Shown here piece after piece: positions 12,694-50,204 of a DNA stretch of 64,000 nucleotides. The DNA is from Psammoneis japonica. Lineage: Eukaryota. The position numbers were made by a program, and so were the translations under genes. The number at the start of each line of letters is the position of its first letter. Position 1 is the stretch's first letter. The stretch is taken from the NCBI GenBank assembly GCA_008632985.1, contig QPGO01000033.1:124001-188000 (forward strand), read 5' to 3'. Below the pieces are notes generated by a model that worked only from the letters and a program-made list of their open reading frames with translations, was not told where the DNA came from and did no database searches.

Positions 12694-13500
12694 TCACGAA
12701 CATGTTTCTGAATATTTTGCATCAACGTTAAGTGTCCTTTTTCTCGTCATTGTTGCCAGTGGGTTAGAGCTGACATTGTCGCCGTAGGATTTGCCTTGAT
12801 GTTCCCCTGGTGGATAGCGCAGTTTATCGAATTTGAACGATCCTCCTTCGTCAAGCACTTCTAGCTGCTCTTGATGCTTGATGCGATGCTGCTCACAAAC
12901 TGGAATGCGTGCCGGTCGAGCAAGCATTGTCTTCTCCACAAGTGCTTGCGTAAATTCTGCAGACTTTATTTCGTATTCGAGTGTGCGTTCCTCGATACGA
13001 TAATTGCTGCTGTGCGTGTGTGATGATCCGTCCCGCCGCAGTGTTAAAGTAACTTTACATGACACAGAAAGAATGAAAGACTGGGCAAGAGGCAAGGCCA
13101 CTTCCCATGAAGCCAACACACAAAAATGCTAGTTGATCTGTGTGAAAAGAAGTAGACTGAAACCTGAGCGAGTCGGAGGGCAAAGCGAATGCATGCCTTT
13201 ATGAAGCTTCGAAGTACAACATGAGCATTCTTAGTGCCTGTCCCCGCCATCAGAGACCATGCCATCATGACGGTCATAAGCGCAAGAAGTGAAGTGATTG
13301 TTCCAAGGCAGAGAAACAGACCTGCCCAAAATGCAACACTTTGCCAATCCTTTTCTCCCAATGCAATGCGCACATTGTCGATTGGTTCTGATGGCGAGAA
13401 CAATGCGACGAGCCGTGAACCAATCATGAGCGTACACATGGTTGTGAGGGATGCAAAGCATTGTGTAAGAAGCCTTTAGAGCTTTTGTGCATCTCACTTG
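12694..13500 (-). pseudogene. Disrupted multi-TM hypothetical host gene at the edge of the hypermutated block
   Basis: Overlapping ORFs 13044-13439 (FWAGLFLCLGTITSLLALMTV) and 12694-13119; TpA content falls progressively towards 13.5 kb. Confidence 0.45.
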
Positions 13501-13725
13501 CCCCAGCTCAAATGCTGGTGCCAAGAGTCAGACTGATCAACGTGCACTGAAAGATCCATCACTTGTTTGGCCATGGGAAACAAATGAGCACACCGATGCC
13601 GCACTTTTCCGGTGTTGTTCTCACTTTGTTGATGCATTTTTGGTTCACACCTTTCATGCAGCTTCTCATGTGGCTAAGTGTTCCAGGTTGGTGGGAGTTT
13701 GAAGCTGACATGCCAATGACATCTG

Positions 13726-14400
13726 ATGTTTGACATCGAGACGGACGAAGATGCCAGGAATGTCACGGGCTTGCTGGAAGCATTGCCCGAGACAGCTCGT
13801 GTTGTTGCAGGTGGTTTCACTTTGTTGCACTGTGCTTGTTGCAACCACTTCTTGAGCCTGGAGATGATTCAATTTTTGGTGAATCTCTTTCCACATGCAC
13901 TGCAATGTAAAAATGGAAGCAAGGCGCCCCCTTTGCTTTTGGCATTCAACAACAGCTCAATCTCCCTGGATGTTGTTCAGTTCATGGTTGAGAAATGCCC
14001 ACAGGCACTGCTGTAGAAGAAAAGGCTGGAGGTTCCGGCAAATCCATTGAAAGTGCTGAATTTTGCCATGCACTTGGTGAATCAGCACCCAAATGCACTG
14101 AGTCATGGAGACAACCTGGGGTTGACTTGCCGTTGCATTGTGTTTGTGGAGATGAATCCACTTCCCTGCAGGTCATCGCCATTTGTTGGATTGGCACCCC
14201 AGTGTGTTGAAACAGAAAAATGACCACACAGGATGCTGCCTTGTCATCCTCTTTGTGTTCAGTCCTGGAAGGACATTGAGCACCATGCAAACATCCTCTG
14301 CCACCTCCTCCATCCATCCCTTTCTAGGTTTTTCCAACTGTGCAGTCTTTGGAGCCCAAAAACAGTCCATGAGACTGACCATGGGAGCTTGCATGATGCA
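13726..14400 (+). pseudogene. Decayed ankyrin-like (LPLH-repeat) gene
   Basis: TLLHCACCNH.LSLEMIQFLVNLFPHAL, SLDVVQFMVEKCPQAL, DLPLHCVC..SLQVI; contains stops and frameshifts. Confidence 0.6.
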
Positions 14401-17400
14401 CCCCTGGTCCCAAACTTTCTGTGCCCCATCTGTCATGCATTGAATTTCAAAGGTTGATCCTTGAATCCATTGTCATCTGCAGTGTTGCAGAAGCACCCCT
14501 TCTTTGAACATGGGTGCACCGTCACATGCCACTGGCCACTGCTTGGGAGAGAGCCAAAGCCAAAAAGAAGTGAGGGCCCTTGTCGCAGCCCTGCCAAAAG
14601 CTGTTGAGCACTTGGGCCAGGGTTTCAGAGCCAAGATTGCATCAAGCGGCAAGGAAGAAAGAGGAGGCTGATCATGCAACCCCTGAAGATGCCCACTTGC
14701 ATCCCTGCACTGTCAACAACAGAGCCGGCACAAGGCTTCAACCCAGGCCCCGCTGTTCTCCTGATGCAGGTGGTGGCAAAATGATTGTGCAGTCCGTCAA
14801 CACACCACACCAATTGAGAGCAAGGGTGCACAGGAGCCATGGTGCCCACATTGATGCAATCTGCTTGTCATGCAACCTGAGGGGGTGGGCAGCCCAGGCC
14901 ACCATCACCAATGGCCACATCAGACACAATCAACAAAAGATCAATCCAACAAGAGCAGGGAAGGCACCATTGCTGAGCAGGCAACCACACAGCTGTTGCC
15001 AATGAAAGAACCCAAGACAAGCTGGTGCTGGAGCTCAATGCATGTCACCAGGAGTTGCACGTTTCAGCACCTGCTTCCAAAGAAGTTGCCTGGGTGACAA
15101 GAAACACCTCCACAGGGACAGTCAGAATGTTGAGAAAGACAAGGGGAGCTGTGTGCCCCACCCAACCTGTCCACAGCCTTGTCAACCAGTCCATTAGAGG
15201 AGAAATGCAATGGAAACCCCATGCCAGCACCAAAACCTCATCTGGGGCAAAACTGTTGTGTGAAGAAGTGCAAGCCACAGGGGATTGGTGGGTGTGTTGG
15301 GAATGCCACAGGATGGAACAAGCTTCCCAGGTGCAACAGGTCCTCCTCCAAAGAAGACTTGGGTTGCCAGAGCTGTCAGGAGATGAAGCAGGATCTGGCC
15401 CTCTCTCATGTCATTTCTTGTTCTCCAGGGGCTTCAACTGTTTTGTAACATCCTTGAGAGTTCATTGTGCAACTGTTGATCTCAACATGTTCTGAGTGGT
15501 CCCCACAAGCCTGAGCAGACTTTGCTTCCATGCTGGCACATTCTCTGCCTTCTCTGCAAGAGCCCCAACCATTCCTTGGAGCTCCATCACTGCCTCAAAG
15601 CCTGAGCTTGTTGCCCTGAGCTTGATGCACTTAAAGGAGCCACAGAGGGGGGGGGGGGGGGGGGGGGGNAACCCCAATGCTGTGCGCTGCTTGGCATCAC
15701 ATCCTGGGTTTTGAAGACTGGTGCCCACAAAACATGTGACTGTGCATGCTTGATCTGGGTTGCCTCCCACTGTGGAAGTGAACACACCCAACTGAACTTT
15801 CTCAGGGTCTTCAAAGATCCCATGAACCAACCTGGCAGTGATGGACCAGGCTTGCTTTTCCAAGAACTTGCCAAGCTTTGTGAGTGCAACATCAGCAAGG
15901 ATTTTGATCTCAGCACTTGCAGTCCTCCCATCTGAGATGGCAGTGCTTCTTGGCGCCAGCATTGTCAGAGGTCCAATGGGACTGTTCATGGGTGGGCACC
16001 TTGTCCAAATGGGATGGGTGGAGCCCAAATGCCTGTGCAGACTTGGTTGAGCCCAAGTCTGGAAGCTGGGACATTCTGTGCTGAAAGCCCGCCAAGATCC
16101 TGGCATTTTTGTCATTTGCTTCACCCAGCCAGAAAGAAAATGATGGAGGGCTGAACAAAGCTTGGCTCCCATGATGCCATCTGAGAGCAGGTTGACATCA
16201 GCAAGGCAACTGCAGGTGCAAGGGACAAGAAGTGCTGTGCCATCCGCGATGCCTTGCGCTCACCTGAGCAAGACCCCACTGCCCCCAAAACCTTGATCAA
16301 CAACTTGTCAGATTTAGCTTGAAGCTCACTTTTGTGCTGTGGTCCAGTGGTGTGAGGCAAGCATCAACTGAATGAGAGTGCAAAGGAGCTGATCCCAGTG
16401 CTGCTGCCTGCACATCAACACTAGATTCTCACACTTCAAGAGACAGCACCTTGTTGGGCAGTTGACTGTTGACTGCTCTCACAAAGCACTCCACTCTTGA
16501 GGGAGTCCATGTCTGACAAGTGAGAGGCAGCAGCACTCTGTCTTTAACCCTTGCCAGGAGGGTCTCACACACAGCTGCTTCCTTGCATTCCATCAAGGAA
16601 GCTCTGAACTCATCCTCTTGGTGGGGCAGCCCTCTCCTTGCTGTTTTTTTTTCAGGACTGGGAATTTCTGGCACCACCCCAATCTACCAGAATTTCAGCA
16701 GTGGACTCTCACTTGACTGCAACACACATTGACAGAAAACCACCATCCAGAGTTGGTTGACAGAGAAGCCCACATCCAGTGTTTTGAGGATGGCCACCAA
16801 CCACTGTTCAAAAGGTTGGAGTCCCCCACCCCCGCCCTTGTGCTTCACAGTGCACACTCACCTGCCTTCTTGACACAAAATGCAGCATGCCACATTGGCC
16901 CCTTCTGGCCAAACGATGTGACAACAAGGCAGAGGAGATGAAGGAGACACACCTTCCTCCTCCTGCCTGGCTGCAGCCCCCCCCCCCCCCCAAATGCTCC
17001 TGCTCCACCAGATCCAAAAAATGTGTCCCACACATGCAGGGTGGTCTTGGCCATGCTGGCCACATGATGACTGACACACCACTGCAAGTTCACCAATGGC
17101 TGGTTGCAAACAAGTGACCATGCCCTGTTTCACCTGCTTGATGTCTGCTGGGAGATCACCAAAGCCAGAAAGACTGCCACCAACACTTGAGCCCTGAACC
17201 CAGGGTGTTTCTGCTGTGACAACCCCCTGAAGATCCATCCTGGGAGGGTGGAGGAGAGGAAGATGGTGAGGAACCCAATGAGAGCAGCAGAGAAACCACA
17301 TTGGACCCAAGTTGATGAGCACATCATTGTTGAGACCAGAAGTGAAGCAATGAGACACAATGACAAGAGAAGCAAAAAAAGAGGTCCTTTTCCAAAAAGC

Positions 17401-17633
17401 TTCAGTGTGATCCAGTCACAGTGAACAGTGTTGTTCCTGTTCCAGCAAAGCTGAAAAAGTGAGAAGAGAAAAATTGAACCATGTTTTGACAGGTCACAGA
17501 AGACTGAAGACCCTGACGGGTCAGCTTGATTTGTGTTTGGATGTTGAGGTTGCTGCTGTGGTGATGTGAGGGGTGGGGTTGAGGCAAGGCAGTCATGCGC
17601 TCTGGAGAGCAGCATGCATTGCACCCACTCCTC

Positions 17634-17825
17634 TGTTTGAGTCTGTCCATCATTGGATGGATGCAGTGGCTGACGCGTTTTTTGGTTTGCTTTCCAGAAA
17701 CTAAGAGACTTTGGAATGATGTCTGTGACATTCTGAAGATGTCAGTGGAAGACCAAGAGATCTGCTTGAGGATCCTCTCACAATCTGAATGGATCACATT
17801 TTGTTGTTTTGTTTTGTTCTTGTCA
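17634..17825 (+). repeat. 5' LTR (internally deleted relative to the 3' LTR; 3' end approximate)
   Basis: Aligns with 24607-24865; begins TG and ends CA. Confidence 0.85.
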
Positions 17826-17842
17826 AGTCACTTTTGGCACTT

Positions 17843-17852
17843 CATCAGAGCC
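17843..17852 (+). promoter_or_regulatory. Primer-binding-site remnant (tRNA-iMet type)
   Basis: CATCAGAGCC just downstream of the 5' LTR; canonical (TGG)TATCAGAGCC with a TA->CA change. Confidence 0.55.
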
Positions 17853-17873
17853 ATCCTCCAGCTGTCTGAGACT

Positions 17874-20800
17874 GTGGCATTCACTGCAGCACAAACCACC
17901 TCTTTTTTGAGGACAACAACCAGATGGGTTTGCCCTGTGCAACACGTGAGCAGTTGGCAGTTGAAGGATTGGAACAGGTGAACAACCTCGCCGATTTCAA
18001 CAAAGATGGTCTCAACCAAGTCTCACAGAACCCCAAGCATCTGGGAGGCACTGTTCCAGATCCCAACCCTGGTGCAGCTGCTGGAGCTGTCATTTTGACA
18101 CCAGCATTTGTCACAGGTGCCAAGAGCATGATGCATCTCAAGGTCACCAGGCAAGCAGTGCAATTCTACGAGAGTGTTGGTTGTGAACTGTTGGCTGCTG
18201 ACATGCACTGGAGCCCAGTCCTCAGGAACTTTCAAGAAGCTTGGAAGGCACCGAAGGGCAGGAAGGACAAGGATGACCCCAAAGTTCCAAGGATCTCCAA
18301 GTCACTTCCTGTTGTGAAGTGGACCAAGGCTTTTTGTGACCACCTGCAGCATGCAATCGGAACTTGGGTTGTTTGACTTTCATGCGTCACTTGGGAGATG
18401 GTTGATGTTGATGCGGCAGCTCCTGCACCGGACACAAGTAAACCCCACTTGGATGAACATGGTTCACTCAAAGACAAGCTTGTGGCTTGAGCCAGTCATG
18501 CTCATCCTTCATTTTGAGAGGACAATTCTGCACGGTGGACTGTTCTTTTTGGAGGAAGCAACCTCTGGAACCTCACACACAGCTTCAATCAAGCCATTCC
18601 AGTGTGGGAAGGATGGAAGGGGTGCATGGATTGCACTGACATCACAGTGTGCTGGAGAGGACAAATGGGTGGCTGAACTCAAGAAACAGGAGGAGTTCAT
18701 CCACAATCGGAAGTGGAAAGCTCAGTCCAATTTTTCCCTTGATCGATTTGTTTCTCAGCATTGCAACAACTTCATCTCCATGCAACAGTGTGCTGAATGT
18801 GTCACCTTCCAACTGCCCAATGAATGCACAAGGGTCACACACCTGTTGGATGCAATCAAGACCTCCGATGCTCCACTGCAGGCTGCCATGGCCCTGGTTT
18901 GCAACAACATGGGACAGAATGGCAAATGAAGTGATTTTGAAGCTGCTGTGGCCCACATCTCACCATGCAATCCTGTGGCAAAGAAGCAAGCTGCAAAATG
19001 TCCACACACTGAGGTGTCTGGCATTGACTCCAGCAACATCAAGTCAGGTGTTGGAAGACTGGTGTGGAGCTTTGACACCACACCCATGCCAAGTGTTGCA
19101 AGTTAGAGGCTGAACAGAAAGCTGAACTGAAGGAGTGGCAATCAGCACGGAGGGATCTTCTGCTGCAAAGAAAAGGGATGGAAAACCTGAGTCACCTGCC
19201 AATGGTTCACAGAAGAAGATCAAGAAGATGATGTTGGAAGCTGTGGCCTCCAAGCCAGCTTTCAGGAAAAGGCTGAAATTGAGTCCAAAGATGTCAAAGC
19301 AGGTGCCCACTTGCTCTCCCTTGTTCAGGCGGCATCGTGCACACAGACTCCAGCTCCTCCTCTTCCCTGCCCCCATCCACCACCACCTGTGGCTACAACG
19401 GCTCCAGCTCAGGCCACGTCAGTTCAGTTCAAGCCACCCTTGGTTTTGTTGCAGTCAATCTTGCGGCATGCCAGGACCAAGAAATGAAACGTTGGGATGG
19501 TGCTGCATTTCAATGTCTCTCCACTTGAGGGGAGAAAATGTGCCATCTGTGTCATGGAATTGCAGTTGTTGATTCCCAATTGTTCTGTTCTTAGATTTGT
19601 TGATCACCATGCAATCTCTGATGTCACTTCAGAAACAATCAAAGAGACTCAAGACAAAAGTGGGCATGCACCAAATTGGACTCCCACGCCAACATGGTTG
19701 TTGTTGGAAGAAGCTTGCACACGTCCCAAATGACACCGGTCGCACCACTCAAGTCAGTCCCTTCAATCCTGAGTGTGAACTGATGAAGGACATCAGAGTT
19801 GTTGATGCCCTGCTGGCGTGTGGCTGCCTGTGCTCTCTGAAAACACATTTGCTGGTCTTGCACAACACTCTTCATGTTCCAGCAATGGACCACAACCTGC
19901 TTCCACCCTTTGTGCTGCACCAGGCAGGGGCAATTGTCAACAATGTTCCCAAGATGCAGACAAGGGGGAGGGAGCCTGTGGAAGATGACCATGCTCTTGC
20001 ATTCCCAGAGACAAAGACAAGGATCCCATTGTCACTCTGGGGTGTGTTTTTGCACTTTCCAACCAGATGTCCTGCGATTTAGGAGATGCAAGATGCTGAT
20101 GACGTCCTGGCTCTCACTCTGTCAGGACACTCCTGGAACCCTCACTCAGATTCCCATGCTTGCAATGAAGAGAGCATGTTGGGTTGGGCAGGAAACATGT
20201 TGGACAAACAAGACTGAATCAGGATTTTGGTCAAAGACCCACCTGATGAAGATGAGGGTCTCCAACTGTCCTCTGTGGTGTCAAGTGTTGAGTGATCATC
20301 GACTCCAAATTGCTCCTTGTTGATCACTTTGAGGCTCGTGACGACTTGAGTGGATGCACAGGTGTCATCCGGGAAGCTGACAATTCCCGTGCGGTCATGT
20401 GTGACATTTTGGCCACTCTTGACCCTGTCTCACTTGCTGAAGACTTGCAAGATCAATGTGACATTGGGGTTTTTGCAGCCTTGGCAGGATCTACAAGGAT
20501 GTTGATTTTGACATTTTTGAGGATGTTCAACTTGAAGACATTGTTGAAGATCTCATGGAGCATTTTGAATCTAGTCCTGAGATCCAAGTTGGGGGAACGA
20601 CTGCACCCAGATTGAAAGGTGCATCTCCAGAACACTTGTCCAAGATCTGGAGGATCAGCACCAAGGATGCAAAACTGACCATTGGCAACACCACCCAACT
20701 TCTTCGATGCTCTCACAATCCTGCTCTCTCAAGGAACTGTTCCACGAATGACAGAATGCTGCAGTGCCGTCAAACTGCCCAGCAGTTCTTTGTGGATGCG

Positions 20801-23800
20801 TTCTCTGCAAGCAAGAAGGCTGGCAAGTCAACCAGAGGGTGTTTCTGCATGCAACTGTTTGTCGCTGACAAAGGATTCATGCATGTGGTGCCAATGCGTG
20901 CCCGCTCTGAGATTCCACAGGCACTCAAGATGTCTGCCAAGGAAGTGGGTGCACCGGATGCGCTCATCTGTGACAGAGATTTGGCACAGAAGTCTGATGA
21001 GATTTGCCAATTTCTTTGTTCTATTGGTGCTGATCTTTGGTTGCTGGAAGAAGGCACACCATGGTCAAATTGTGCTGAACTCTACATTGGCTTGCTCTAG
21101 GAAGCAGTGCGGAAGGACATGAAAGAGTCCTCATGACCTTTGCCATTTTGGGATTGCTGCTTTGAACGATGGGCCCACATCAACAACTTGACAGCTCGAA
21201 ACCTGTTTCAACTTGAGGGGAGGAATCCACATTTCTCTGTGACAGGGGAGGAGGGTGACATCTCTGACCTTGCCCAGTTTGGATGGCATGAATGGTGTCA
21301 TTTTTGAGATCACACCAACCCTTTTCCATTTGATCATGAGGCCCCAGGACGTGTGCCAGGTCCTGCGAAAGGTGAAGGAAATTAAATGGCTCAATGGGTG
21401 CTGAAAGGGAACAGCAATGTTGTCCCACAACATCCAGTGCAACCTCTGTCCATTGCCAAGTTAAACAGCATCACAGAGAAAAGCAAGCGCAAGATTTTTG
21501 ACCAATGCATTGAATCGCACTGGGGCTCTGCTGCTTGCCAGGTGTCCTCCACCGGCAAACAATTCATTCCGCATGAAGACAAAGATGAAAAGCCAAGAGA
21601 CCTCCCTGATTTTGATGACCCAGCCAATGCCTCTGGGAATGCCATTGACCCAACACCACTGTGCGACAAGCCAGTTCACTCTGAAGTCGCCTTGCCCGAA
21701 GGTGACAAGATGCAACAAGCTGAAGTTGTTGGTCATGTTGTGGATCCTGATGGTCAGTTGGTCGGCACATGCAATGACAAGCTGATCAAGAATGCCTTGG
21801 TCTGTGAAGTCGAGTTTCCTGACAGGGAGGTGAAAGAATGCGCTGCCAATGTCACCGCGGAGAACTTGCTCTCTGAAGTTGACTCTGAAGGCCACACTCT
21901 CAACATTTTTGACAGCACACTTGATTTTGCCAAAGACCACACTGTGGTGACCAAGGACAACATGTGTGCCAAAGTTGGCAAACACAAACAACTGGGCAAG
22001 ATGACATGCGGTTGGAAATTCCTCATGTTGTGGAAGGATGGGACCGAGTCTTGGGTTTCACTCAAGGACATGAAGGAATCACATCCAGTGGAGACTGCAG
22101 AATTTGCAAAGGCCAGAGATGTTGATGATGAACCAGCTTTCCAATGGTGGATGCCATGCACTCTTCACAAGCAAGGTGTCATTGTGTTGGCAGCCAAGGC
22201 ACGTGTGAGACGTGTGACACACAAATGTGGTGTCAAACTCCCCAACACTGTGGAGGAGGCACTTGAACTTGATTGTCAGAATGGCAACAAACTGTGGGCA
22301 CTGGCAATTGAGAAGGAGATGCATGATGCGGGTGTGGCATTTGAGATCTTGGGCAATGACGCTGCAACTCCTGTCAGCTGGTCCAAGCAATCAGGTCACT
22401 TGGCATTTGATGTCAAGATGACCTTGGCCAGGAAGGCTCGATGGGTCCCAGATGGACACAAGACTTCCAAACCTGAAGGCTTGAGACGCTCGCTGGAGTT
22501 GTGTCAAGGGAAAGTGTGCAAGTCACTCTGACTTGCGCTGCTTTGAATGACATTGACATCATGGCAGCTGACATTCAGAATGCATGCTTGCAGGCTCCTT
22601 CATCCCAGAAGCACTGCGTCACATGTGGCCCAGAATTTGGACTCAAAAATGTGGGCAAACATGCTCTTGTTTGCCGTGCTCTGCATGGTGGCAAGTCAGT
22701 GGGACAAGACTTTTGGAACCACCTGCATGCTTGCATGTCTCACCTTGGGTTCAAACCTTGCAAGGCTGATCCTGATGTGTGGATGCGTGAGGCGCTCAAG
22801 GCTGATGGCACTGAGCACTGGGAGAGCATGTGTTCTTCTTCACACAGATGATGTGCTGTGCATTTCAAACAATGCTGAAGAGATTCCACAGAAGGAAATT
22901 GGCACAAGTGCTTCCCATTGAAGGAACCATCAATCAGACCACCAAGTCTGCACCTTGGCAGACACCTGCAAAAGGTGGAGCTTGAGAATGGTGCCAAGGC
23001 ATGGGCACCCAGCTCCTCGCAGCACACCCAAGCATTGGTTGAGAATGTCGAAACCCATCTGGATTCAAAGGGCGTGAAACTCCCAACCTGGGCCCCCGCT
23101 CCACTTGGCAACTCTTGTCATCCAGAGCTTGACATGAGCAGAGAACTGTCCTTGACTGATGCTGCTCATTGTCAGTCACTTGTTGGTGTGTTGCATTGGA
23201 TGGTTGAGCTGGGGCGTGTCGACATTTGTCTGGAGGTGTCCATGATGTCATCGCGTTTGGCTTTGCCATGAGAGGGACATCTTGATCAGGCACACCATGT
23301 CTTTGCACACCTCAAGAAGCACCACAACACCAAGATGGTGTTTGATCCCACCTGCCCCACCATCAATGAAGCGCTGTTTGCATGACAAGACTGGATGACT
23401 TCTGAGTTCAGTCTTGCAACCACGGAGGAGATGTCTGCCGACATGCCTCAAGCTTGAGGTCTGGGTGTGATCCTTTGTGCCTTTGTCAATGTGGGCCATG
23501 CAGGTGACTCAATTGCTTGTCAGTCTCACACTGGCTTTCTCATTTGCCTGAATTCTGTGCCTGCTTGTTGGTTGTTCAAGAGGCAGACGAGAGCATTGAG
23601 ACAAGCTCAGTTGGGTCAGAGTTCACCAGCATGAAGCAGTGCACAGAGCACATTCATTGGCTTTGCTGCAAGTTGCAAATGATGGGGATCCCAGTCAATG
23701 GGCCAGCACATGTCTTTGGTGACAGCCAGTTGGTGCTGGCGAGCACCTCCATCCCTGACTCAACGTTGAAGAAGAAATGTCACAGCCTGGCTCACCACTT

Positions 23801-23900
23801 CGTGCACGAAGGTGCGGCTCGAGACAAGTGGTGAACGGCACATGTCAACACACATTTGAACCCCAGCAATCTTCTCACCAAGGTGCTCCCATCAGGGGAG
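17874..23900 (+). pseudogene. Decayed gag-pol of the copia element
   Basis: Fragments 17924-18929 (gag), 19597-20082 (PR), 20555-21100 (IN), 21386-23271 (linker/RT), 23517-23834 (RH); many TGA stops and frameshifts. Confidence 0.9.
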
Positions 23901-24127
23901 AAGCGCAATCGGTTTGTTTGAATGACCCTGCACTGTCTTGGAGGGAAGGTGGAGCAGGCCATCTTGTTGAACCAGCCACCTGCCTGCGCGGAGGGTTTTG
24001 TTTGGAGCTCCCTGTCGACGGAGTGGGTTTTTGTCTGGAGTTCCCCACTTGATGGGTGTTTGTCAGAAATTTGCCATTGCATGATGACGACTTGTCCCTT
24101 TGCATGCAATCTAGCTTGTTGACTTGT

Positions 24128-24575: not shown

Positions 24576-24598
24576 TGACCAATTCTCTAGAGCAGATT

Positions 24599-24606
24599 GA
24601 GGGGAG
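24599..24606 (+). promoter_or_regulatory. Polypurine tract
   Basis: GAGGGGAG immediately before the TG of the 3' LTR. Confidence 0.8.
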
Positions 24607-24865: not shown

Positions 24866-25060
24866 CCTCCAAACAAAGATTCTGTGGGTCCATGCTCATT
24901 GGGCGGTCTTGCTTCAAGCAAACCGGTGAGAAAGCAAAGCGAGCAAAGACAACATCACATTTTACTCTTTTTGCTTGATCTCCTGCCGGCACCCATCGCA
25001 ACTCAATGAGCCATCTGAAACGCTGCTCGCAGACCAGTCTGCTGAAAACTGGGGCCTGCA

Positions 25061-39588: not shown

Positions 39589-42500
39589 TCATTCGTCCTG
39601 GAGTTGCACACCAACCCCAAGCTTGCGAGACAGACGTTCTTGGGCTGCCACGATGTTTGCCAGCCAAGAGCGTTTGAAAGAGGTTGACTTCGAGAGCAGC
39701 GAGACAACGTGACTGCAGAAATGACAAGCGAGTTCCCCTGGGAGACCTTCTTGGCCCCGCTGAAAATGGTGGCGAATCCACGAGTCTAGCTCGTCTCTGG
39801 CTTGCTCGCTGATTTGAGGGTGGGCGGCGGCGTTCCCATGTTCCCACAGCCGATGCGTTGTCCCGACAAGCTGGTGAACCCATCTTCTGACCCATTTGGA
39901 TCCCGATTTTCTAGAGCCTTGGAGCCAGAAATGCTCCTGTTGCAGCAGAGCCCACTCCTTCACTGCACAGCCCTCCAGAAGTCTGTCCCAGCCGATGACA
40001 CATTGCGACTCAACCGCCTGACGAAGGATTGGGCTTGCGCAAGGGTCGATGCGGACATTGACATTTTGCTGGCTACACCAGGCAGTGAGGTGTTCCTGAA
40101 TGGTGCTCGCTAAGCCAAACGCCGCATCGTTGCGATCCACCCAGCGGATGTGTTTGCGCAAGAGCGACCTCCACTTGTCCGTGGCCTCTGGGCAAGCAGT
40201 GACGTGCGTAGTGTCTTCATTGTCGGCGTCGCACCGGGGGCATCGCGAATGATCCTGAGCCTTCCAGCGTTTCAGCCATTTGCCTGCTCTGCACATTCCC
40301 ACCGCGTGTTTGGCCATCCACCATCGTTTGCCGATGCCAAGACTCCTGGCGACAGTCTGAATGACATCCCAATCGATCCTGTGAAAGCCCTCGTCCGTGA
40401 AGCGTCTTTTTTGTTCGATCCAGCATTTTGCCAGCCGTGTGCCGTGAACGTGGTGATGCAGTCGATCAGAAAGCTTTGTCAAGATCTTGTGTCCTCCAAC
40501 GAAGACACCCCACATTTCGTCTTTGATGTCAAACTGTCATGGCTGCCTTTCCTGGGGGTCTAGTCTGGCCTCATGTTGCCATCGAGCTTTAGCTGGGTTG
40601 TCCATCTCAATGTTCAGTCTTGCCCATCTGTCGAGTCTTCTGCATCGTAGAGTGTCTTGATGTCCTTTGACCCACCGGAATTTCCACCGCAGTGGGCTCT
40701 TGGTGATTTTAGCCTTGACAGCACTTAAAATGTCGAAGTCGTTGGACCGAGCTGTGACGGGAAGAGTGGGGTCCGACAATTTTCGTAGAGCTTGTTTGCC
40801 GTCACAGGCAATTTCAATTGCTCCTTGATGAACGTCATGATGCAGACAAATGTCTTCAACTGTGCAAACAATGCCGTGGAGACCCGCTGTCTCCGCTCGG
40901 TGGGAATTCGCATCACCAGGGTGACCTGGCACAACGTTGGCACCCGTCACTGGGTGGGTGTCTCATTTGCCTTGGACAGTGAATGCCGATGTTGCAAGAT
41001 TGTCTTTAGCCAACCCGTCACTGACAGCAATGGCTGCTCCTGATTTGATGGCGTTGGCAACATGCAATCCGTCGTCGTCGACCGAGACTTTGTTGTTTGC
41101 CCATTGTCTGGCTGGAGGTCGTTGGCGGAGCCGTTGGAGAAGATTGATTGGGGCTGGGGCGTCTTGACTGAGTCTCGTGCCGGTGGACCCCGAGCGACAC
41201 ATTCCCCATCTGTCCTTGCCTTTGCGGTGAACACGGGTGCGTTGACTGTCGTCGGGCATTGCAGCCGGTCCAGCCGGAATAAATCTGTGATGATGGTTTC
41301 TCATTTGCCTGCTGCTCAACAACCTGAATGAAGTCCATTGGTTGTTCTGACCTCTTTGACACAGTCGTTGTTCAGATGGAGAGTGGAGCCAATGCCAGCA
41401 GGAATCATTGTCTCTAGTGTCGGGAAGCCAGGCGCCCAAGGGACGGCGCAGTTGCCTTGAATGGACATTGGTGGCCTGTGCAAAGCAGTGCCTTAGAGCC
41501 TTGCGCCACATCGTCCAATCGGCAGCCTTCAGGCATTGCTGCGGGGGCCAATTGCGCTGGGACCGAAAGAAGACATCCTTCTTTCCATTCCACATGTCAC
41601 ACAGAATGTCGCATCCATCACCAGTTGAGATGTCAGCAAGTGTCACGACATTCAGGAAGACACGGCAACGATTGAGGGCCTGCAGCTTAGCTCCGACAAA
41701 GCCGTCATCTGCAAATCTTTCCATGAGAAAGGCGTCATTCTCACGTGAGAGTCTCAGCAACGGTGCATCTTCGTTGACTCTGATGTCGTGGCTCGACAAG
41801 AATTTCCAAAGATGTTTGACCCATGATTGGGTGGCCAGGCGCTGCCGATTCCAACTTCCAGCTTGTGTTTCTCCACAAGTGCTTGGAGAAGTTGACCCGT
41901 GATCATGTCAGCTTTGCCGTGTTTGACAAAGGCCTCGACATGTTTCCTGTGCATGGTGGAAGCAATCGATTCAAATCCGAGGCCCTGCAGTTGGATGGGA
42001 CCATGCACAACTGCGCGGGGAAAGGACTTGCACAAACCTGATCTCGGAAGGCCTTGCTTGAGCAGCGGTGCTTCGATGCATTTGCATTCTTTTGACGACA
42101 GGGTCAGGGCGAGAAGAGGACAGTCGAGGGCCTTGCGGACTCATTGAGTCAGAGCCAGCCACGCATCAGCCTTGGAAAGATGACCTGATCGAGCCCAATC
42201 TGCCCAACCTTCAGCATGCTTCCGGAGTTCTTCCACTGCCTTCCTGCAGTTTCCGTCAGGGGCCAGCCACACTCCTGGAGTTTTCTTGGTGATGGAGGGC
42301 GAGAGCCGTTCGATCGGATGTCTAGTTCCTTCTGCATCCTCTGCGCACATCTGTGGGTCATCCTGGTTGTCAGGATCACTGTCTTCGTGAACGCACTCCC
42401 ATCTGCCATTCACCATTTAAATTCGATCAGGTGCCACCAACATTTGTCCGGACGAGTGTCGCCTCCCGCAACTCTCATGCCGCCTGCAAAACGGTCCAGT

Positions 42501-45330
42501 CCTCTCTGGGCTTCTTGGACAACTTCCCACCCCGGTTGCAGCGGATCTGTGGCTGTGTGAATGATGTCACTGTCATCGACGAATGCAAACCCCACTGTTT
42601 GAAGTTCCTTGTTCGAGATGGCCAGACGGAAGGCTGCCCCGTGACCCGCAGTCCTCATCATTTCAAGAACGGGAGCACTGACTGCCGCCCAAATCTGGGG
42701 GGCATTGCCGTCACCTTGACCGAGTCCTTGTGGAGGCTTGCAATCTGATTCAAAGTTGTCGGGGTCAAATGCGATTGCAAAGAGGTCGCCACCGAATGAT
42801 TGCTCGGATTGACCATAAATTGTTTTTACAGTGTGCTCCATCTGCTGAAGAGCAGTGAATTCGCAGACAATTGGTGGTTCTGGAGCTCCTTTGCTTTGCA
42901 TTGCCAGTGTGGCGCACGAGTGGACGACAAGGTCGTAGCACGAACGCAAGTCCACAGCGGTGTCCACAGCGTTGATTCTGTCCACTCGAATGAGGTCAAA
43001 AATCAGTTGTTTGTTCAGAGCTTGTTCTTCCGCTGAGTGACCCTTCCTGCTGCCGCACTGCTCCCGGGCGATCCATTGCCTGGGTTCAGCTTTCCTCATC
43101 ATTTGTTGTCCAAGGATTTTGTTGTTGTTGTTTGCATCCACTTCAAAGCACAGAATGGGCCGCAGAGCATCCACGCATTCTTGTCCTGTTTTCTTTGGGA
43201 TCAGAAGGTCCATGCCTTGTTGCCATCGCTTTGGAGAGCAGCCTGAGATGTGGGGAAAGTTTGCCTGGAGGCATCAAGTTGGGTGAGGGTGTCGTCAAAA
43301 CGAGCAGCTTTGAAATGGGCGGTGTACAACCCCGAGGGACCAGCGCAGATTTTTTCCTTCGCTCTCTTCCAAGACTCCGTGTGTTCTTCTGTGGAGATCC
43401 ACGGTTTTGCATCCACAGAGCTGTCAGGCGGGTGCCGCAGATGCAGAAGGTGTTCTCGTGCATGTTGAGTCGCACCCGGTGGGAATTCATACGACCCGTC
43501 TAGAATGGCATCTGCATGGGGCCCAACTCCGAGAAATTGGACGTCGTTGATGAGCGGCTCCTGCATGAGGGCGGTCCGGTGAGTTTGATGCAGTCTTAAC
43601 TCACAGTCTTGGAGGGCGAGAGTTTCCATTTCCTCTTTGTCCGTGACCTCTCGATCGGAGCCGTCTGCTTGTTTCTCGAGGAGACGTGTGAGTGGAGATC
43701 GGAGAGGTTTGCCGGAGATCCGATTGACTCTGCAATTCTGCTCCCTGCTCTCTTCGCGGTTGATGAGCACCCGCAGTTGTGTTTTGGCGTTGGAGTTGTT
43801 GGCTTTGGCCAGCTGTTCCGCTTGCTTCTCTAGAAACTTACGTCAATGATCAGGAGCATCTTTGGCGATTGCTCGACACTCTTTGCAGCGCAGCGATGAA
43901 CCTGCCTCCAACTGTTCGAGAGTGAGGGTGTGCACGTTGAAGTCTTTTGCTTTCCTTTCCAGACGACGTATTTTCCCAGAGCTGATCGTGAGGCGTTTCC
44001 GTCGGCGAATCAGGGCTTGATGCAACTCGATTCGCTTGGACGCTCGTTTGAGCTTGGGGGACCAGGATTTGCCTCCCATGCGAAGCTTTCTGCATTTTTT
44101 GTCGGCGAGCCATGTGCCTTGAACTCGCAATTCATCAATTCTTTCCCATTCATCAGTGAGGTTGGGATGCGGGGGGCAAGCAGCTTGCTTTTCGTTTTGA
44201 ACACTCCTGTTGGGAAGATTGTGTGTCAGTGCACGGCGTTTACGAATTTTGTTGAATCTGCCAACAGTGACTGGATTGTCAAGTTTAAGTCTCCAAGTGG
44301 GGTGCCTTTCGAGTTCAGGGGGAAGCGCACCAAAAGCGGTCTGAAACGAGACATCGATCCAAGCCATTCGGTGGTCGGATCCTGTGATTCTATCTCCAAA
44401 AGGCAAGAACCCGCCCTGTTCGATTGTCGTGCCTGCAGTGGCCCAGATGCCGTCAAATGGAAGGGAGCCAGGGTTCCGTGTTGCTGGAAGTGAGTCTTCT
44501 CCGCAGCGCTCTGTCAGCAAATTTCTGAGTTGCACAGCTGAGAAGGCGTCTTTGATCTCGGCAGACCGAATGTCTTTGTTCACGTCACCTGACAGAATGA
44601 TTTGATCTCCGTCCGCAAGCCACTTGATGACCTCCTCAGTCAGGTCCTCGATCCAGGCTGCTCGGGGACATCTGTCGTCGTCATGTTCATTGAGATGCCT
44701 TTTGTGCTGGGAGCAAACTGTCCTGGCGCCTTTGCAACTTGCACAGGGCCGGTGCGCTGTGACAATGTGAAGAGTCGCGCCTGCTTTGCCATGGAATCGG
44801 AGCCAAGACCACCTTCCCAAACCAGACGAATCTGTGCCTCTTGCAATCACTCTGTGTCCCGCTTGATTGATTGCCATCAGCATTGTGCCACCTGGCTGGC
44901 AGAAAGAGGAATGTAAGTCGTGAACGTTGCAGGCGGCCAAGATGGACAGAGGATGTTCCCAGTGCCCTCGGAATCTTTCCCTCGGTCGCTCGGAATGTGG
45001 GACGGTTTTCCAACACCTTCCAGTTTCGTTCATGCATGACACATTGATGCATTTTTCTTGGACTGTGCGGTGCACACTTTGGTTTTTTTGATCTTTGTCA
45101 TCCAAGGGAAGGCCGCTGATGTTCTGAAATGCAATCCGCAGGGTGGTCTCAGGTTTTTCATTGGTGCAAGCAGCATCATGTGTCTTGTTGTTTGATGGTT
45201 GTGTGGTGGACTCGTTGCTCGTGCTCTCTTGTTCGACATCGAGTTTTCTTTTTCTATTTCTGTTGCGGCGGCTGCCTCTCTTCGTCAAAGGACCACGTGG
45301 CCGCCCACCGTGATCCTTCTCTTCATGCAC
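39589..45330 (-). pseudogene. LINE ORF2 (endonuclease - reverse transcriptase - RNase H), frameshifted
   Basis: Pieces 43843-45330, 43201-43770, 42410-43213, 40963-41799, 40537-40950, 39589-40515. Confidence 0.9.
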
Positions 45331-48300
45331 TGCTCGGACTCACCGGCTTGGTCCCACACCAAGCCGGCTTGAACAATCTGAGTGTCGCCCTGGAAGGGAT
45401 CCGACTCCCCTCCCCGCATCGCTGCAGTGGCTTCACTGGAGACGCTTTGCGAGGTCTCCATGTCATCGTTGTGTCCGTCGCTCTGTTCACCAAGAACAGA
45501 TCCTGTGTCGACAGATTGGGCAATCTTCTCCTTTCCTTTGAGGAGGGCAGATTTGACCAGCCCAACAATGTCCGCTGGAGTCATGTTTTTTGCATCGACA
45601 TTGTCGGGGAGATGGACTGCCAGGTCCTGAATCTCACCAGTGATGTTGGCCATTTTCTGTTTTGCAGTCTCCGTGGTTCCCGAGGTCTCGTTAGATTGGT
45701 GGGATCCATCGTCGGAAGATTTCTTGTCTGTCAGTGGTTGCTTGGTTGGATCGACATGAGCATTTTTTCCTTTCCCAGCTTCTCGAGCCGAGGCCAGTGT
45801 GTCTTCGTCAAGGCCACCTCGTCCGAGCATTGCTGGGTCGACAGGTTCTGGAGCGGGAGGGGTGTTTTCAATTGGTGAGTTGTCACGCGTTACCTCAACT
45901 TGGATGTCTTCCAGATTCTCAAAGTCATGGTCGTCATTGTCCAGCTCCTCCGCCAAAGCTTGGGTGCGTGGGTGAGTGGTTGCATGCTTTTCTTCGTCCC
46001 ATCCAGCTCCTTCCACATCCTGCACATGGGAGGCAGTAAAGAACCTTTCAACACCATGTCCGCATCGATGCTGCAGGTGCAGAAGCAGGGAGTGAGCCAT
46101 GGGAATGGCCTCGGACTCCACCTGTGGATGACACATCACCGCAGCGGTTCCTCCTTTGCACTGAGGAAGCGCTCCTACCTCCATGAACTGAGCAGATTTC
46201 GGTTTGTTTGGTCTTTTGATCATTGCGATCATCTGCCGAAGAGTGAGTTTTGCAGCTGGATCAGGTGCGTTGAGAGCTTGAACATTGTGGAGAGGAGCAA
46301 TTTTTGCGTGTTTCAGGTGGGCTTGCTGCCGGATGACTGCCGTGTCCACAAGATCAGTCTCGGTTGGGCTGATGCAAAAGGAGCATTCGGGAACAAGCTT
46401 GGCGATGGTTCCGAGCGGTTTGTTGGGGTTCAATTTGGAGAACATTGCTTGGAGAGGACCTCTGGCATTGTCTGCATCTCGTTCGTTCATGATGATGTGT
46501 AGAGCCTTGGGTTGTGGGTGTGCGGCCATTGCGTCTGACGGTTTAGAGACTTTCCAAGCACGAAGCTCAACTGGCACCTTAAGACGAGAGCTGGTTTCCT
46601 TTTCGAGCTGAGTCGGGTCGAGATCGGCGTGAGCCCACATGAGGATGAAGCCTCCTTTGGTTCTTTCTGCCTTTTGAAGGACCTTGGGTTTGAGGAAGAC
46701 TTTGAATGCGTCATTGAGTGTGTTTTTAAGGATCTCCTGATTCTCATTGGGGTGTTGGTCCATTCCGAGTCGGAGGTCGATCCAATTGTCTTTCTCCAGA
46801 TTGAGACGAACACGTTGGAGATGCTGGCACATCTGTCCGAATGGGAGCTTGGAGAACTGCTTCCGAAAGGTTCCGCCCTTGAGAGCAATGGCCTTGTTGC
46901 CGCAGTCTCCCGACCACGTTGCCACTGCAACATTGTTGCCGGTGAGATTGCACGCTCTGTCCATGACCTTGCCAAAAAAATTTTCCAATTGAGACTTCTG
47001 GATTTTCATCCTTTGGGAGATTGGATTGTGCAGGGAGTTTGAGAGTGCAGCGACATCAAAATTTTCGGATGGTTTTGTTTGATTTTGAGTTGATTGGGTT
47101 GAAGAAGGCCAATGCTTTGATGACTTCATTTGGTTCTTCTGCAGGTGCCGTCTCCATTGATTGCAATTCATTGTGGAGGTCGTTGTTTTCTGGTCCTTTC
47201 TTGACTCGTTTGTTGGGTTTCTGAGTTGTTTTGGTTTTCCCTTTGTTGTCGGGAGTGATTTGCTTGGTCGGTTGTCCTGAGCCGGCCTCATTCGCAGAAG
47301 TGGAGATGGCCTTGGCCGTTTTCGTGGCTGCCGCGTCAGGGGCTCGAAGGGTGTTTTTTTTGTTCTTGTCAGTCGTCTGAGTTTGTTTCTGGTTGGGTTT
47401 GGTGCCTTCCGAAGTGACCTTGGATTGTGCCACCTTGAGGCTTGACAACAGTGTGGTCGATTTCTGTTTGTTTTCAGCTGTTTTTTTCTTGGTCGAGAGC
47501 GTCGTTCCTGTGAGTTGACGAGAAGTCTTTGAGGGGATTGTGGTTTTTGGATCGGTTGTTTTTGGCGTGATTTCTTCATCGGAGCTGGAGGTCTCGTCGT
47601 CAGATGATCCTGTGGTTTTGAAAGGCTTGGGAACCGGCGGCACAACACCAAGAACCACCACGTTGTCATCAGAGTCCTGGGGTGGATCGGAATGATGAAG
47701 GAACTCTCCGTCCTGTGGGGTTTCGCCACTGCTGACCAAACTAGAGTCAGAGGACAAGGAGGAGGATGATGAGGAGGATGAGGAATTTGTTCCTTCTTTC
47801 GAAAAGGAGGAGACACTCTCGCTGTCCTTGATCTTGGCCTGGAGTGCAGCGTGCCTGCGTGCTTCCTTTTTTCAATGCTTTGCAACACGCGCCTTTCATT
47901 GCTCTGATTGGAGAGATCATCTTGAAGGTCTTCATCAACTGGAGTGTTCTTGGTGAAATTGTTGACAAAATCCTCTTCAGAGTTGAGCGCAAAGTCGACT
48001 AGAGAGTCTTCGTCGCCGCCGCTTTGGAGAGGTTCATGCCTGTTTTTGTTGTGTTGATTGATCGAACGAGGGGAGTCAGTGGGAGCCGAGATCTCTTTGT
48101 TGGAATCGTTCATCGACACTTCCAGTTTCTCATTTTTTGCAGTGTTCTTGGGGGTCTTGCAGCCACTGTTGTCTTCTTTGAAATCCATCTGTTTCTGACC
48201 GATTTCAGCCGTTGCGCCAGGAGAACCGTTGGTCTCAAGAAATTTTTTGATTCCTTGCTGTTTCGGATGCATCCTTTTTTGCTTGCGCTTGTCGGGAGAA

Positions 48301-48380
48301 CTCACATCAGTTTGAGAGGTTACTTTCTTGCTGGGTGAGGAGGCACCCTTGTGTTTGGTGCCGTTTTGCTTGTTGGCCAT
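45285..48380 (-). pseudogene. LINE ORF1
   Basis: 1031-aa ORF upstream of the APE; low-complexity N-terminus; probable compensating frameshifts at ~47.05 and ~47.8 kb; contains no Tyr. Confidence 0.75.
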
Positions 48381-50204
48381 GGTTGATTTTTGTTGCTGGT
48401 TTGCGCAGGTGCCAGCACTGAGTTTGTGTGGACTTTCCGGGTTGCTTTAGACGCTGATGCATGCTGGAAAAGTGCATGTTGTGTTGTTGTTTAAAAAAAA
48501 ACAAGGTCAAGAGCCAAACTCTTTGTTGGTTGGCATTGTTTGCAAGCAGTTGGTGTGCAACAGCATGATTGGCTCTGGGCTTGCTGCACCAGCAGGAGCA
48601 TTTTAACTGCTGGCATTGTCAAGCAGATTTTTTCATGCTCCACCCTCAGAAGTGCAGCATTGAAAATTTTGGACAATTGTTTGATGGCACTCAGCAAAAG
48701 GGGTCTTCAGAGTTGGGCATTTTAGTTCATCAACCAGTTTGTGTTTGCTGCACATGCTGTGGCTGCTGCATTGCTTCAAGAGAAAGTCATGTCAGCTTTG
48801 TGAAAAAAAAATGACAGTGCCAGCAATTTGTTCTTTGTGTGCTTTTGGAATGAATGCTTTGTGGCATGGAAAGCTCCAGGGTCATGGGTCCCCAGTGCAC
48901 TGGTGCCTTTGATCCCATGATGTGGGGCCCATGTTCCTTGTTGTGTCAGCTGTTCTCATGGTCTGTGCACACCATTTGGTTCCCCGGCGGGGTGAGCGGC
49001 ACTTTGTTGCAGTTGCACAGGGGACAGAGCTGGGTGTGTGCTGACAATGCTGGAATGAGCCTGGAGCTTCTGATTGTGTTGAAAGTTTGTGCTGCTGGGG
49101 ATGTCAGGCAGTGGTGCAAAAGGTGCAGTGTGGGAAATTTTTGTTCGCAGAGCAAAGGCCAGCAACGAAGTGGTTGGCTTTTTGAGCGTTTGGACAGCTC
49201 ATCCTGTGGCACTGCATGGTGGAACAAGCTGGCACACAGCCTTGCTGTCAGTCAGGTGTTCTTCCTTGCTTGAGCTTTTTTCAGGGTGCTTCATTGTCAA
49301 GGCAGCAATGCAAAGTCATCTTGGCTTTTGAGTCCCTGGGTTTGTTTTGCAGAAAAGTGGCTGCAGCAGAGTGCTGTGCTTGGAACATTTTGCCACATGT
49401 GTGATTTTGATTGACTCAACTGGGATGGCATTGCTGCAACAATTGCCAATGACAAGAAGATGTTTGCAGCCTCAGCTGGATTGGGCAGGGAAGTGTCTGG
49501 TTGAGCATTGAGGGCAGCGCATTGAGGGCAGCGCAATGGATTCGATCATCGGCACAGTGTGGCCGTCATTGCAACAATCAACAATGTTGGGACAGAAATC
49601 ATGGCACCATCTTTGGGGTCTTGGTTTGGGTGGAAGTCTTTGGAGTCAATTGCAGTGGTGCACACATGCTCTGGAGGTTCTTCCACCATTTGTCTGGACA
49701 TGTGCTGACCATGTTTGACAAAATCATTGTGCACCCTCTGACACACACCACACAAAAAAATTGTTGCGCACCTTCAGACATGGGGGAGTTCTTTTGACCT
49801 TGCAGCAAATCTCTCTAAGCTGAGCAAGCTGCACCCTCTGGTTCTTGCAGTGCATGTGTGGGGCTTGTGGACAGTGAGAAAAGAGAGCAGTCAAAGGCAC
49901 AAACCTCTCAAGGTCGATGAGCACAAAAGGGTGTTTTTCCCAGTGCCTGCACTGGCGCTGCCACACTGCACAAGCAAAATCACTCCTGGCTGGATGTGGA
50001 GCTTGTTCTGCAGCACCACCTGGTGTGAGTTCAACCACTTCACTGCCATCTAGTAGCTAGAGTCCATGATCCTCTTGTTCTCCAGAGCAAACTGGGGGAC
50101 AAAATTGCTGCGCTGATCCTTGCTTGTTACAAAAGGCCGACAAACTGACACAGACAGCTGCCGCCGATACAAGAAAAAATATATGTAGCATTTATCCCTG
50201 CTTA

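Follow-up and report, generated by a model that had tools for sequence, protein, structure and literature searches.

Why should two blocks of transposon DNA have lost nearly all of their TpA dinucleotides when the genes around them have not? The question is raised by a 64-kb stretch of contig QPGO01000033.1 (positions 124,001 to 188,000; assembly GCA_008632985.1, deposited as Psammoneis japonica), which we call the window and which is the scope of all results reported here. A reading of this DNA from its sequence alone (hereafter the sequence-only reading) had described TpA (TA) as near-absent from both blocks and normal in the flanking genes, and the counts bear this out. The TA-poor blocks, at 13,480–26,150 (block 1) and 34,430–50,050 (block 2), together comprise 28,292 nt and hold 108 TA where 1,707 are expected from base composition, an observed-to-expected ratio (O/E) of 0.06, whereas the flanks hold 1,421 of an expected 2,482 (O/E 0.57). 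Had the blocks the same O/E as the flanks, they would contain 973 TA, and the Poisson probability of seeing 108 or fewer is about 1e-274. When the stretch is scanned kilobase by kilobase, the 27 one-kb windows starting at 14,001–25,001 and 35,001–49,001 have TA O/E of 0.00–0.17, as against 0.42–0.83 in those lying wholly within the flanks, and an estimate by eye of about 35 TA in 13.5–24.9 kb compares with a count of 34 in 13,500–24,900. The loss of TA in the blocks is real. The block edges are sharp by TA positions. In block 2, on the left, dense TA ends at 34,425 and the next TA lies at 34,777, and on the right, the last inner TA at 49,816 is followed by 17 TA in 50,051–50,336. Judged by TA positions, block 1 begins at about 13,280–13,480 and ends at 26,150, and at the block edges CpG thins more gradually than TA.

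The dinucleotides that changed along with TA are few. When blocks are compared with flanks across all 16 dinucleotides, the depletion is restricted to TA and CG and the surplus to TG and CA: CG O/E is 0.41 in the blocks versus 0.99 in the flanks, CA 1.67 versus 1.18, and TG 1.59 versus 1.19, with the remaining 12 dinucleotides lying at 0.85–1.22 in the blocks and at similar values in the flanks. AA/TT is unchanged (1.17 in the blocks, 1.18 in the flanks). G+C is 0.508 in the blocks and 0.471 in the flanks; a general GC-biased pressure was considered and set aside, as AT and AA/TT are essentially unaltered. Because most of the block DNA has lost much of its CpG as well, the surplus of TG and CA has two sources, and simple arithmetic on the dinucleotide counts of block 1 gives about 405 missing TA and 572 missing CG against a surplus of about 841 TG plus CA. 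The long open reading frames (ORFs) without Tyr are a trivial by-product of the TA loss, which leaves TAA plus TAG at 6.0 per kb in the blocks versus 34.4 per kb in the flanks. Of the four such ORFs that had attracted attention, those of 1031, 381 and 364 aa, as measured from the first Met, do lack Tyr, as does the fourth, which measures 498 aa from stop to stop.

Evidence on the direction of change comes from the elements themselves. Both blocks are islands of dead retrotransposons, consisting of a Copia-type long terminal repeat (LTR) element in block 1, a 9-kb non-LTR element (long interspersed nuclear element, LINE) in block 2, and older repeats of undefined type. The Copia-type coding region was mapped by tblastn with 20 full-length relatives (1,281–1,865 aa) chosen from among 150 matches listed, and nine LINE relatives of about 1,600–2,000 aa align to the second element from 45,426 down to 39,490; Tyr makes up 3.0–4.8% of residues in the Copia set and 1.7–3.4% in the LINE set. 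Columns were treated as conserved when at least 10 of the 20 Copia relatives, or at least six of the nine LINE relatives, were aligned and at least 70% agreed, and at these columns the window is identical to the consensus residue in 229 of 333 cases for Copia and 593 of 807 for the LINE. None of the 18 conserved Tyr columns of the Copia element keeps Tyr; they now read His (6), Cys (5), Ser (3), Phe (2), Leu (1) and Trp (1). The 24 of the LINE read Tyr (2), His (6), Cys (6), Phe (8), Arg (1) and Ala (1), and a stricter 80% cut, which leaves 16 columns, gives Tyr (2), His (5), Cys (5), Phe (3) and Ala (1). Pooling the two elements, the 42 Tyr columns hold 2 Tyr, 12 His, 11 Cys, 10 Phe, 3 Ser and 4 others, so that Tyr is kept at 2 of 42 versus identity at 820 of the 1,098 other conserved columns (Fisher p = 5e-21). 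Conserved His or Cys columns, on the other hand, have turned to Tyr in 0 of 52 cases, and the change was therefore from TAY (Y, pyrimidine) to CAY or TGY and not the reverse. The altered motifs from which this direction had been read by eye (NACL, ALHG, HTDD, KCG, HCQS, AHHF, QCGS and AHRP) are all found where they should be in the reading frames of the Copia element and the LINE.

To judge from the sequences of its relatives, TA depletion is not a family trait of the LINE. We compared it with 79 loci on metagenome contigs that encode LINE relatives, and in all 79 the whole-locus TA O/E lies at 0.48–0.89; none of their 697 one-kb windows falls below 0.3, the minimum being 0.38. When the baseline for ORF2 is drawn from 34 loci whose matches reach about 3.3 kb or more, the ORF2 region in the window contains 34 TA where about 271 are expected, a retention of 0.126, and its CG stands at 1.18 times the expectation from the same 34 relatives.

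The two products are balanced in elements of either orientation. His and Cys occur at a ratio of 6:5 at the Tyr columns of the Copia element, which lies on the + strand, and 6:6 at those of the LINE, on the − strand. Since His (sense T>C) is as common as Cys (sense A>G), both strands were changed, and changed at the level of DNA rather than by editing of sense RNA. The dinucleotide spectrum, the Tyr columns and the relatives thus agree with the sequence-only reading that TA gave way to TG or CA directionally, on both strands, and within the transposon blocks only.

The sequence around the surviving TA adds a rule of its own. Expressed as leftover TA density in the blocks relative to flank density, retention is 0.43 for CTAG, 0.39 for TTAA, 0.31 for CTAA/TTAG, 0.09 for GTAA/TTAC, 0.09 for GTAG/CTAC, 0.03 for ATAA/TTAT, 0.03 for ATAG/CTAT, 0.02 for GTAC, 0.01 for ATAC/GTAT and 0 for ATAT, of which about 158 would be expected from flank density with both strands counted. 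Leftover TA sits in YTAR (R, purine) and RTAY has been erased, with CTAG and TTAA lasting longest, and the order of contexts is similar when the LINE relatives serve as the baseline. If the half-sites are taken to contribute multiplicatively, the palindromes predict retention at the mixed sites (predicted/observed 0.095/0.091, 0.099/0.090 and 0.41/0.31), with per-strand retention of 0.65 for TAG, 0.63 for TAA, 0.15 for TAC and about 0.055 for TAT; the A of 5'-T-A-Y-3' was converted at some 4 to 7 times the rate seen for the A of T-A-R. Because the two half-sites act independently, we infer that the agent reads one strand at a time and is not a dimer recognising the palindrome RTAY. The products carry the same imprint, in that a purine precedes His in 10 of 12 codons and Cys in 4 of 11 (p = 0.036), and the gain of TG relative to the LINE relatives is larger for xTGY than for RTGx in all four informative context pairs. 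Both observations fit A>G at T-A-Y, which in double-stranded sequence is the same thing as T>C at R-T-A.

Two comparisons address whether the change occurred in place and whether the bases are real. The LTR-like pair in block 1 has 29 mismatched bases in 175 aligned nt, 21 of which lie in swaps among TA, CG, TG and CA (seven TG-versus-CA doubles, four CG/TG, two CA/CG and one TA/TG), the pattern predicted by independent decay of shared TA or CG after duplication. The sequence-only reading had also proposed confirming the bases in reads, and a deep DNA run, X1, whose platform is not on record, reproduces the TA-less sequence: it contains 0.97 of the sampled words of 11,500–21,000, and its contigs, at a word depth of about 57, cover 12,019 nt of block 1, over which 15 letters differ. 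We analysed 17 block 1 differences among those listed, leaving out two rows in a very high-depth repeat. Eight set CG against TG or CA, four make up two TG-versus-CA doubles, and three have TA in X1 where the window has CA or TG (at 25,657, 26,059 and 26,072, the last two coming from a lower-depth contig end); the rest are one transversion at a TA and one other transition. Among the differences listed, none restores a TA inside 13.5–25.6 kb. In the gene flank, 7 of the 21 differences listed are transversions and the alignment has 6 gaps in 2,279 nt; with such indels and substitutions relative to the window, X1 is therefore not simply the polishing data. A basecalling artefact is unlikely.

CpG decay is a layer that co-occurs with the TA loss and not its cause. 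Its marks include the conserved Arg columns of the Copia element, which are kept at only 43%, the replacements including His (3), Gln (3), Cys (2) and stop (1); these losses belong to the CpG-decay layer. TA loss is seen without CpG decay in the LINE and in 24.9–26.15 kb, and CpG decay without TA loss in the relatives, where 35 of the 79 environmental loci combine a CG O/E below 0.6 with normal TA; from these sequences, CpG decay of this LINE family appears to be common in other hosts. The TA-poor LINE and 25–26.15 kb keep CG at 0.74 and 0.76, and TA loss therefore plateaus before CpG decay is far advanced. TA loss is separable from, and faster than, the decay of CpG to TpG and CpA. Decay of CpG in most of the blocks is also the sole hint of a silenced state of the islands; no RNA run was listed as containing the stretch, and a further run, X2, which shows spliced joints, covers the flanking genes and nothing in 13.3–24 kb, and counts neither for nor against silencing.

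What, then, rewrote these islands? On balance we think it probable that A:T was changed to G:C at TpA after insertion, on both strands and preferentially at T-A-Y, by a deaminase directed to the islands through chromatin or transcripts. The comparisons above show that the inserted elements underwent intense TpA-specific A:T-to-G:C transitions in place and on both strands, which turned about 90% of their TA into TG or CA, each strand being acted on independently and the A of T-A-Y being favoured over that of T-A-R. Under this account, the agent would be an adenine-to-inosine deaminase working on the DNA of transposon chromatin while it is transiently single-stranded, an enzyme of the TadA/ADAT kind, with an activity akin to the TpA hypermutation of Bigelowiella natans discussed below, and it would be targeted by way of the chromatin or transcript state of the islands; whether chromatin or small RNA does the targeting is a guess. 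Taken by itself, the step in which a TadA/ADAT-fold enzyme converts adenine to inosine on unpaired DNA is one to which we would give slightly less than an even chance. In the natural tRNA target of TadA/ADAT enzymes, U33 precedes A34, and the bacterial TadA site is U-A-C, which resembles T-A-Y. TadA and ADAT, fungal ADAT-based mRNA editing, ADAR and the laboratory base editors derived from TadA share a preference for U or T directly 5' of the edited A, as here, and all natural TadA, ADAT and ADAR members act on RNA, to our knowledge. A scan of window ORFs with Pfam found no gene for a deaminase of the cytidine deaminase (CDA) fold among them.

Several considerations tell against this account. 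The process is known here from its end state alone, no mutation having been observed as it occurred, and adenine- and thymine-centred chemistry leave the same double-stranded outcome. Substrates of the eukaryotic ADAT2/3 enzyme mostly have a purine after A34, the opposite of T-A-Y, and for that reason a tRNA enzyme without modification does not readily match. Silencing of the islands is no stronger than a hint, and the evidence as a whole comes from a single window. On the side of the products, the analysis is noisy, ATGT showing no gain though the loss of ATAT is the largest, and the test of His and Cys contexts comprises 23 codons. Finally, X1 is of unrecorded platform and may share its sample with the assembly, and its sequence departs from that of the window in both substitutions and indels.

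The equivalence of the two chemistries makes a thymine-directed process the natural counterpart to consider. If the T of 5'-R-T-A-3' were modified in transposon chromatin, for example by a TET/JBP-type enzyme to 5-hydroxymethyluracil (5hmU) or a J-like base, and then mispaired with G or were wrongly repaired, the resulting T>C at R-T-A would fit the sequence data exactly as well as A>G at T-A-Y, and T followed by A is where both the 5hmU of dinoflagellates and the base J of kinetoplastids are enriched. We regard this as unlikely, in that we know of no thymine-modifying enzyme or base of that kind in diatoms and of no established efficient route from 5hmU to T>C; the sole published precedent, in the portion of its text available, argues for adenine deamination, though by analogy only. 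Error-prone repair or translesion synthesis in heterochromatin seems to us quite improbable, whether as Pol-eta-type change of WA to WG (W, A or T), a candidate of the sequence-only reading that fits poorly, or as over-zealous T:G mismatch repair that resolves replication errors toward G:C. Such activities do exist, for Pol eta introduces A>G changes in WA motifs and the very-short-patch (VSP) repair of E. coli depletes CTAG through T>C, and CpG decay in the islands would keep T:G repair busy. However, the motif here is TA only and not WA, given an AA/TT O/E of 1.17 versus 1.18; CTAG is the best-kept context, the opposite of a VSP-like effect; and near-saturation in a LINE that keeps most of its CpG (TA at 0.126 and CG at 1.18 times relatives) needs a rate far above repair noise.

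Other explanations would place the change before insertion, in the data, or in the families themselves, and each fares worse against the evidence above. Both identified elements are retroelements, and RNA editors favour U before the edited A, as stated in the available text of the B. natans Discussion (bioRxiv 10.64898/2026.01.13.699255), which is what A-to-I editing of retrotransposon transcripts by an ADAR- or ADAT-like enzyme, fixed by reverse transcription so that copies arrive already hypermutated, would call for. Sense editing gives Tyr to Cys only, however, whereas His and Cys number 12 and 11 here and sense T>C is as frequent as A>G in both elements; the LTR-like copies differ as TG versus CA at the same sites, X1 has TA at the same locus where the window has CA or TG, and non-coding and undefined parts are equally depleted. 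We reject RNA editing by ADAR or ADAT fixed by retrotransposition on the strength of that ratio, leaving it a very small probability. A sequencing or assembly artefact, with a modified base at TA misread as TG or CA, deserves no greater weight. Methylation-linked A>G and C>T miscalls do occur in nanopore data, and the many small indels between window and X1 in the gene flank (the 6 gaps in 2,279 nt) are like those of long-read assemblies; but X1 has long contigs at a word depth of about 57 and 0.97 of the sampled words of 11,500–21,000, its 15 differing letters in 12,019 nt are unlike noisy reads, no TA is restored in 13.5–25.6 kb among the differences listed, and its disagreement with the window elsewhere means that it is not simply polishing data. 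That the composition is intrinsic, the families avoiding TA or being selected against a TA-cutting nuclease or TA-targeting transposons, can point to the mild under-representation of TA window-wide (flank O/E 0.57), yet we give it the slightest chance of all: the relatives have normal TA and Tyr, the 79 loci contradict any such avoidance, conserved Tyr of the catalytic regions has been destroyed, and selection cannot reach such an extent on dead elements.

The change at TpA also has to be set beside the known systems of transposon mutation. It resembles the repeat-induced point mutation (RIP) of ascomycetes in being transition-only and dinucleotide-specific, in ruining transposons in place, and in sparing neighbouring genes. 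RIP, however, makes C>T changes, for the most part at CpA, and generates TpA, whereas here TpA is destroyed, CpA is in excess and G+C goes up from 0.47 to 0.51, and fungal RIP was rejected on these grounds. As for a RIP-type trigger by duplication, the adjacent 1.1-kb tandem Ysc84 duplicate, 78% identical, is untouched. The decay of CpG through 5-methylcytosine (5mC) is matched by the second layer, with CG O/E of 0.13–0.28 in the older parts and 8 of the 17 X1 differences being CG versus TG or CA, but CpG decay cannot remove TA. The argument that neither RIP nor 5mC deamination alone made these blocks is therefore sustained, TpA having been removed and not made, and the relatives and the LTR-like pair agree. 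APOBEC3 offers a likeness in its deaminase-type hypermutation of retroelements, the use in defence being a feature of APOBEC3. It converts C to U on minus-strand cDNA, giving G>A on one strand only and before integration; APOBEC-type editing was rejected because the non-CpG change here is A:T>G:C, symmetric on both strands and post insertion.

The closest match makes the claim that no such system had been described outdated. In mutation-accumulation lines of B. natans, 231 of 302 de novo single-nucleotide mutations lie in integrated giant-virus and virophage regions, and the mutations in those viral regions are nearly all A>G or T>C on TpA (Mettrop et al., bioRxiv 10.64898/2026.01.13.699255, April 2026). 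According to the available text of the same preprint (bioRxiv 10.64898/2026.01.13.699255), reverse-transcriptase and DDE domains are enriched among TpA-depleted, CpA- and TpG-enriched coding sequences and clusters, some lines have an elevated de novo rate of about 1e-7 per site per generation, a homologue of ADAT2 is put forward as a candidate for the enzyme, and DNA editing by amphioxus ADAT2 is cited. As far as that text goes, the two cases share A>G and T>C at TpA only, yielding TpG and CpA on both strands, and in both the change is local, limited to foreign or mobile DNA, and GC-biased against the usual bias of the genome. They differ in host, a chlorarachniophyte (Rhizaria) there and a likely diatom (stramenopile) here; in extent, the viral inserts described in the preprint keeping TpA at 3.3% and 9.2% of dinucleotides and the retrotransposons here having an O/E of 0.06; and in kind of evidence, a rate measured directly there and an end state alone here, where the three TA-versus-CA/TG differences from X1 are the sole hint of an elevated rate. 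The portion of the preprint available is also without wider sequence context, CpG or diatoms. In the limited collection of literature that we searched, no report of TpA loss in diatom transposons was found, and B. natans is the sole precedent.

The present case is thus a second, distant lineage with the TpA hypermutation signature and not its first description; what is new is the T-A-Y half-site rule, retrotransposons near saturation, independence from CpG decay, and the host lineage. With the same signature near saturation in a likely diatom, what had been an oddity would become a defence that is possibly widespread in the SAR (stramenopile, alveolate and Rhizaria) lineages, and the case provides a comparative route to the enzyme through genes common to both hosts and absent from diatoms without the signature. 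Our finding points to an activity that rewrites A:T pairs in mobile DNA, for which an adenine deaminase is our best guess as a candidate. More tentatively, and with rather less than even confidence, we propose that diatoms and chlorarachniophytes may share a DNA adenine-deaminase defence that acts at T-A-Y on each strand independently, in the chromatin of transposons and viruses and without regard to cytosine methylation, and that strips mobile DNA of TpA and thereby of its Tyr codons and two of the three kinds of stop codon. Such a defence, if true, would be a eukaryotic analogue of RIP, with the chemistry reversed, and would supply natural editors of adenine in DNA. Laboratory adenine base editors were evolved from TadA, and we know of no natural enzyme established to deaminate adenine in DNA; a natural DNA adenine deaminase would interest genome engineers. 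There is also a hazard for annotation, as TA-free islands yield long false ORFs and upset composition-based methods.

Table 1. Coordinates of the two TA-depleted blocks, the elements within them and the adjacent paralogous genes (positions in the window; O/E, observed-to-expected ratio).
Feature	Position	Strand	Details
TA-depleted block 1 (12.7 kb)	13480..26150	.	TA O/E 0.05, CG 0.28, CA 1.65, TG 1.78
Short ORF with ankyrin-repeat match, in TA-depleted zone	13720..14013	+	Pfam PF00023, E 9.1e-05
LTR-like direct repeat, upstream copy	17634..17821	+	Partner 24,607–24,859
Degenerate Copia-type gag-pol coding region, several frames	19637..24020	+	0/18 conserved Tyr columns keep Tyr
LTR-like direct repeat, downstream copy	24607..24859	+	Partner 17,634–17,821
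TA-poor, CpG-normal tail of block 1	24860..26150	.	One-kb window 25001–26000: TA O/E 0.05, CG 0.76
Ysc84-domain gene, left paralogue beside block 2, normal TA	33049..34121	+	Pfam domain
Block 2a, old repeat DNA	34430..39000	.	TA O/E 0.06, CG O/E 0.13
Block 2b, near full-length non-LTR (LINE) element, endonuclease-plus-reverse-transcriptase type ORF2	39001..48450	-	TA O/E 0.10, CG O/E 0.74
LINE ORF2-like region	39490..45426	-	Aligned to relatives of about 1,950 aa
LINE ORF1-like region, 1,053-aa stop-free frame, no Tyr	45288..48446	-	Matches DNA upstream of relatives' ORF2
Block 2c, old repeat DNA, sharp right edge at 50,051	48451..50050	.	TA O/E 0.04, CG O/E 0.16
Ysc84-domain gene, right paralogue, normal TA	50579..51691	+	78% identical to left copy over 1,121 nt

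The assignments in Table 1 draw on homology of uneven depth. Two of the nine LINE relatives carry precomputed Pfam reverse-transcriptase and endonuclease domains, and residues of about 490–940 of the ORF1-like frame match DNA upstream of ORF2 in 12 of the 79 related loci, from which it follows that the LINE spans about 39.0–48.45 kb. Pfam matched one of the 14 block ORFs of at least 200 aa (RVT_1) and two of a further 125 of 90–199 aa (Ank and a weak RVT_2). Comparison of sub-blocks by blastn found no similarity between 2a and 2c, between the left part of block 1 and the rest, or between blocks 1 and 2, and over the whole window Rfam gave 0 matches and ARAGORN 0 tRNAs. In the tail of block 1, a 369-aa ORF at 25,046–26,155 has no homologue at E 0.001 or better.

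A few features of block 1 stand apart from the main argument. At 24,046–24,679 the summed word depth in X1 is about 68,000, compared with about 57 around it; this segment holds two 111-nt direct repeats (24,128–24,238 and 24,465–24,575, 94% identical) and several of the leftover TAs of block 1, and it may be a younger insertion. By eye, the stretch between the two repeats resembles a tRNA T-arm, though ARAGORN and Rfam call nothing there. A single N lies at 15,669, just after a point (15,636–15,668) at which contigs are seemingly cut, and may mark an assembly join. Among the 164 Copia relatives examined, in which median Tyr content is 3.3%, one of 272 aa (P0139) has a single Tyr (0.4%) and 5.9% Cys, and may be another TpA-hypermutated copy from some other assembly.

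The flanking DNA is that of ordinary genes. Block 2 sits between the tandem Ysc84-domain paralogues, both of which have normal TA and serve as a control for unaffected duplicated DNA, and one flank gene carries the plastid-related LPA1/DUF3493 domain. For a CorA ORF, the best named relatives are all from diatoms (Synedropsis, Grammatophora, Pseudictyota, Helicotheca, Ditylum, Amphora, Attheya and Cylindrotheca), with identities of 41–62%, and the best unnamed match reaches 76%; on the strength of this one gene, the window is most likely diatom nuclear DNA. Two protein-atlas look-ups gave family names and no useful taxon. Given that the nearest named relatives are all diatoms, the window does not look like B. 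natans DNA; the CorA search also gave no match at 100%, which would agree with this if the proteome of that species is part of the collection. Farther to the left, 2300–10430 contains a cluster of Mito_carr (mitochondrial-carrier) gene copies on both strands, 66–78% identical to each other in DNA. Across 26,500–31,000 the window differs from both X1 and X2 by shared substitutions and by many indels of 1–2 bases, which reflects either an assembly from another strain or residual indel errors in the assembly. X2 also shows spliced joints of 82–83 nt with CT..AC ends, corresponding to short introns of genes on the − strand.

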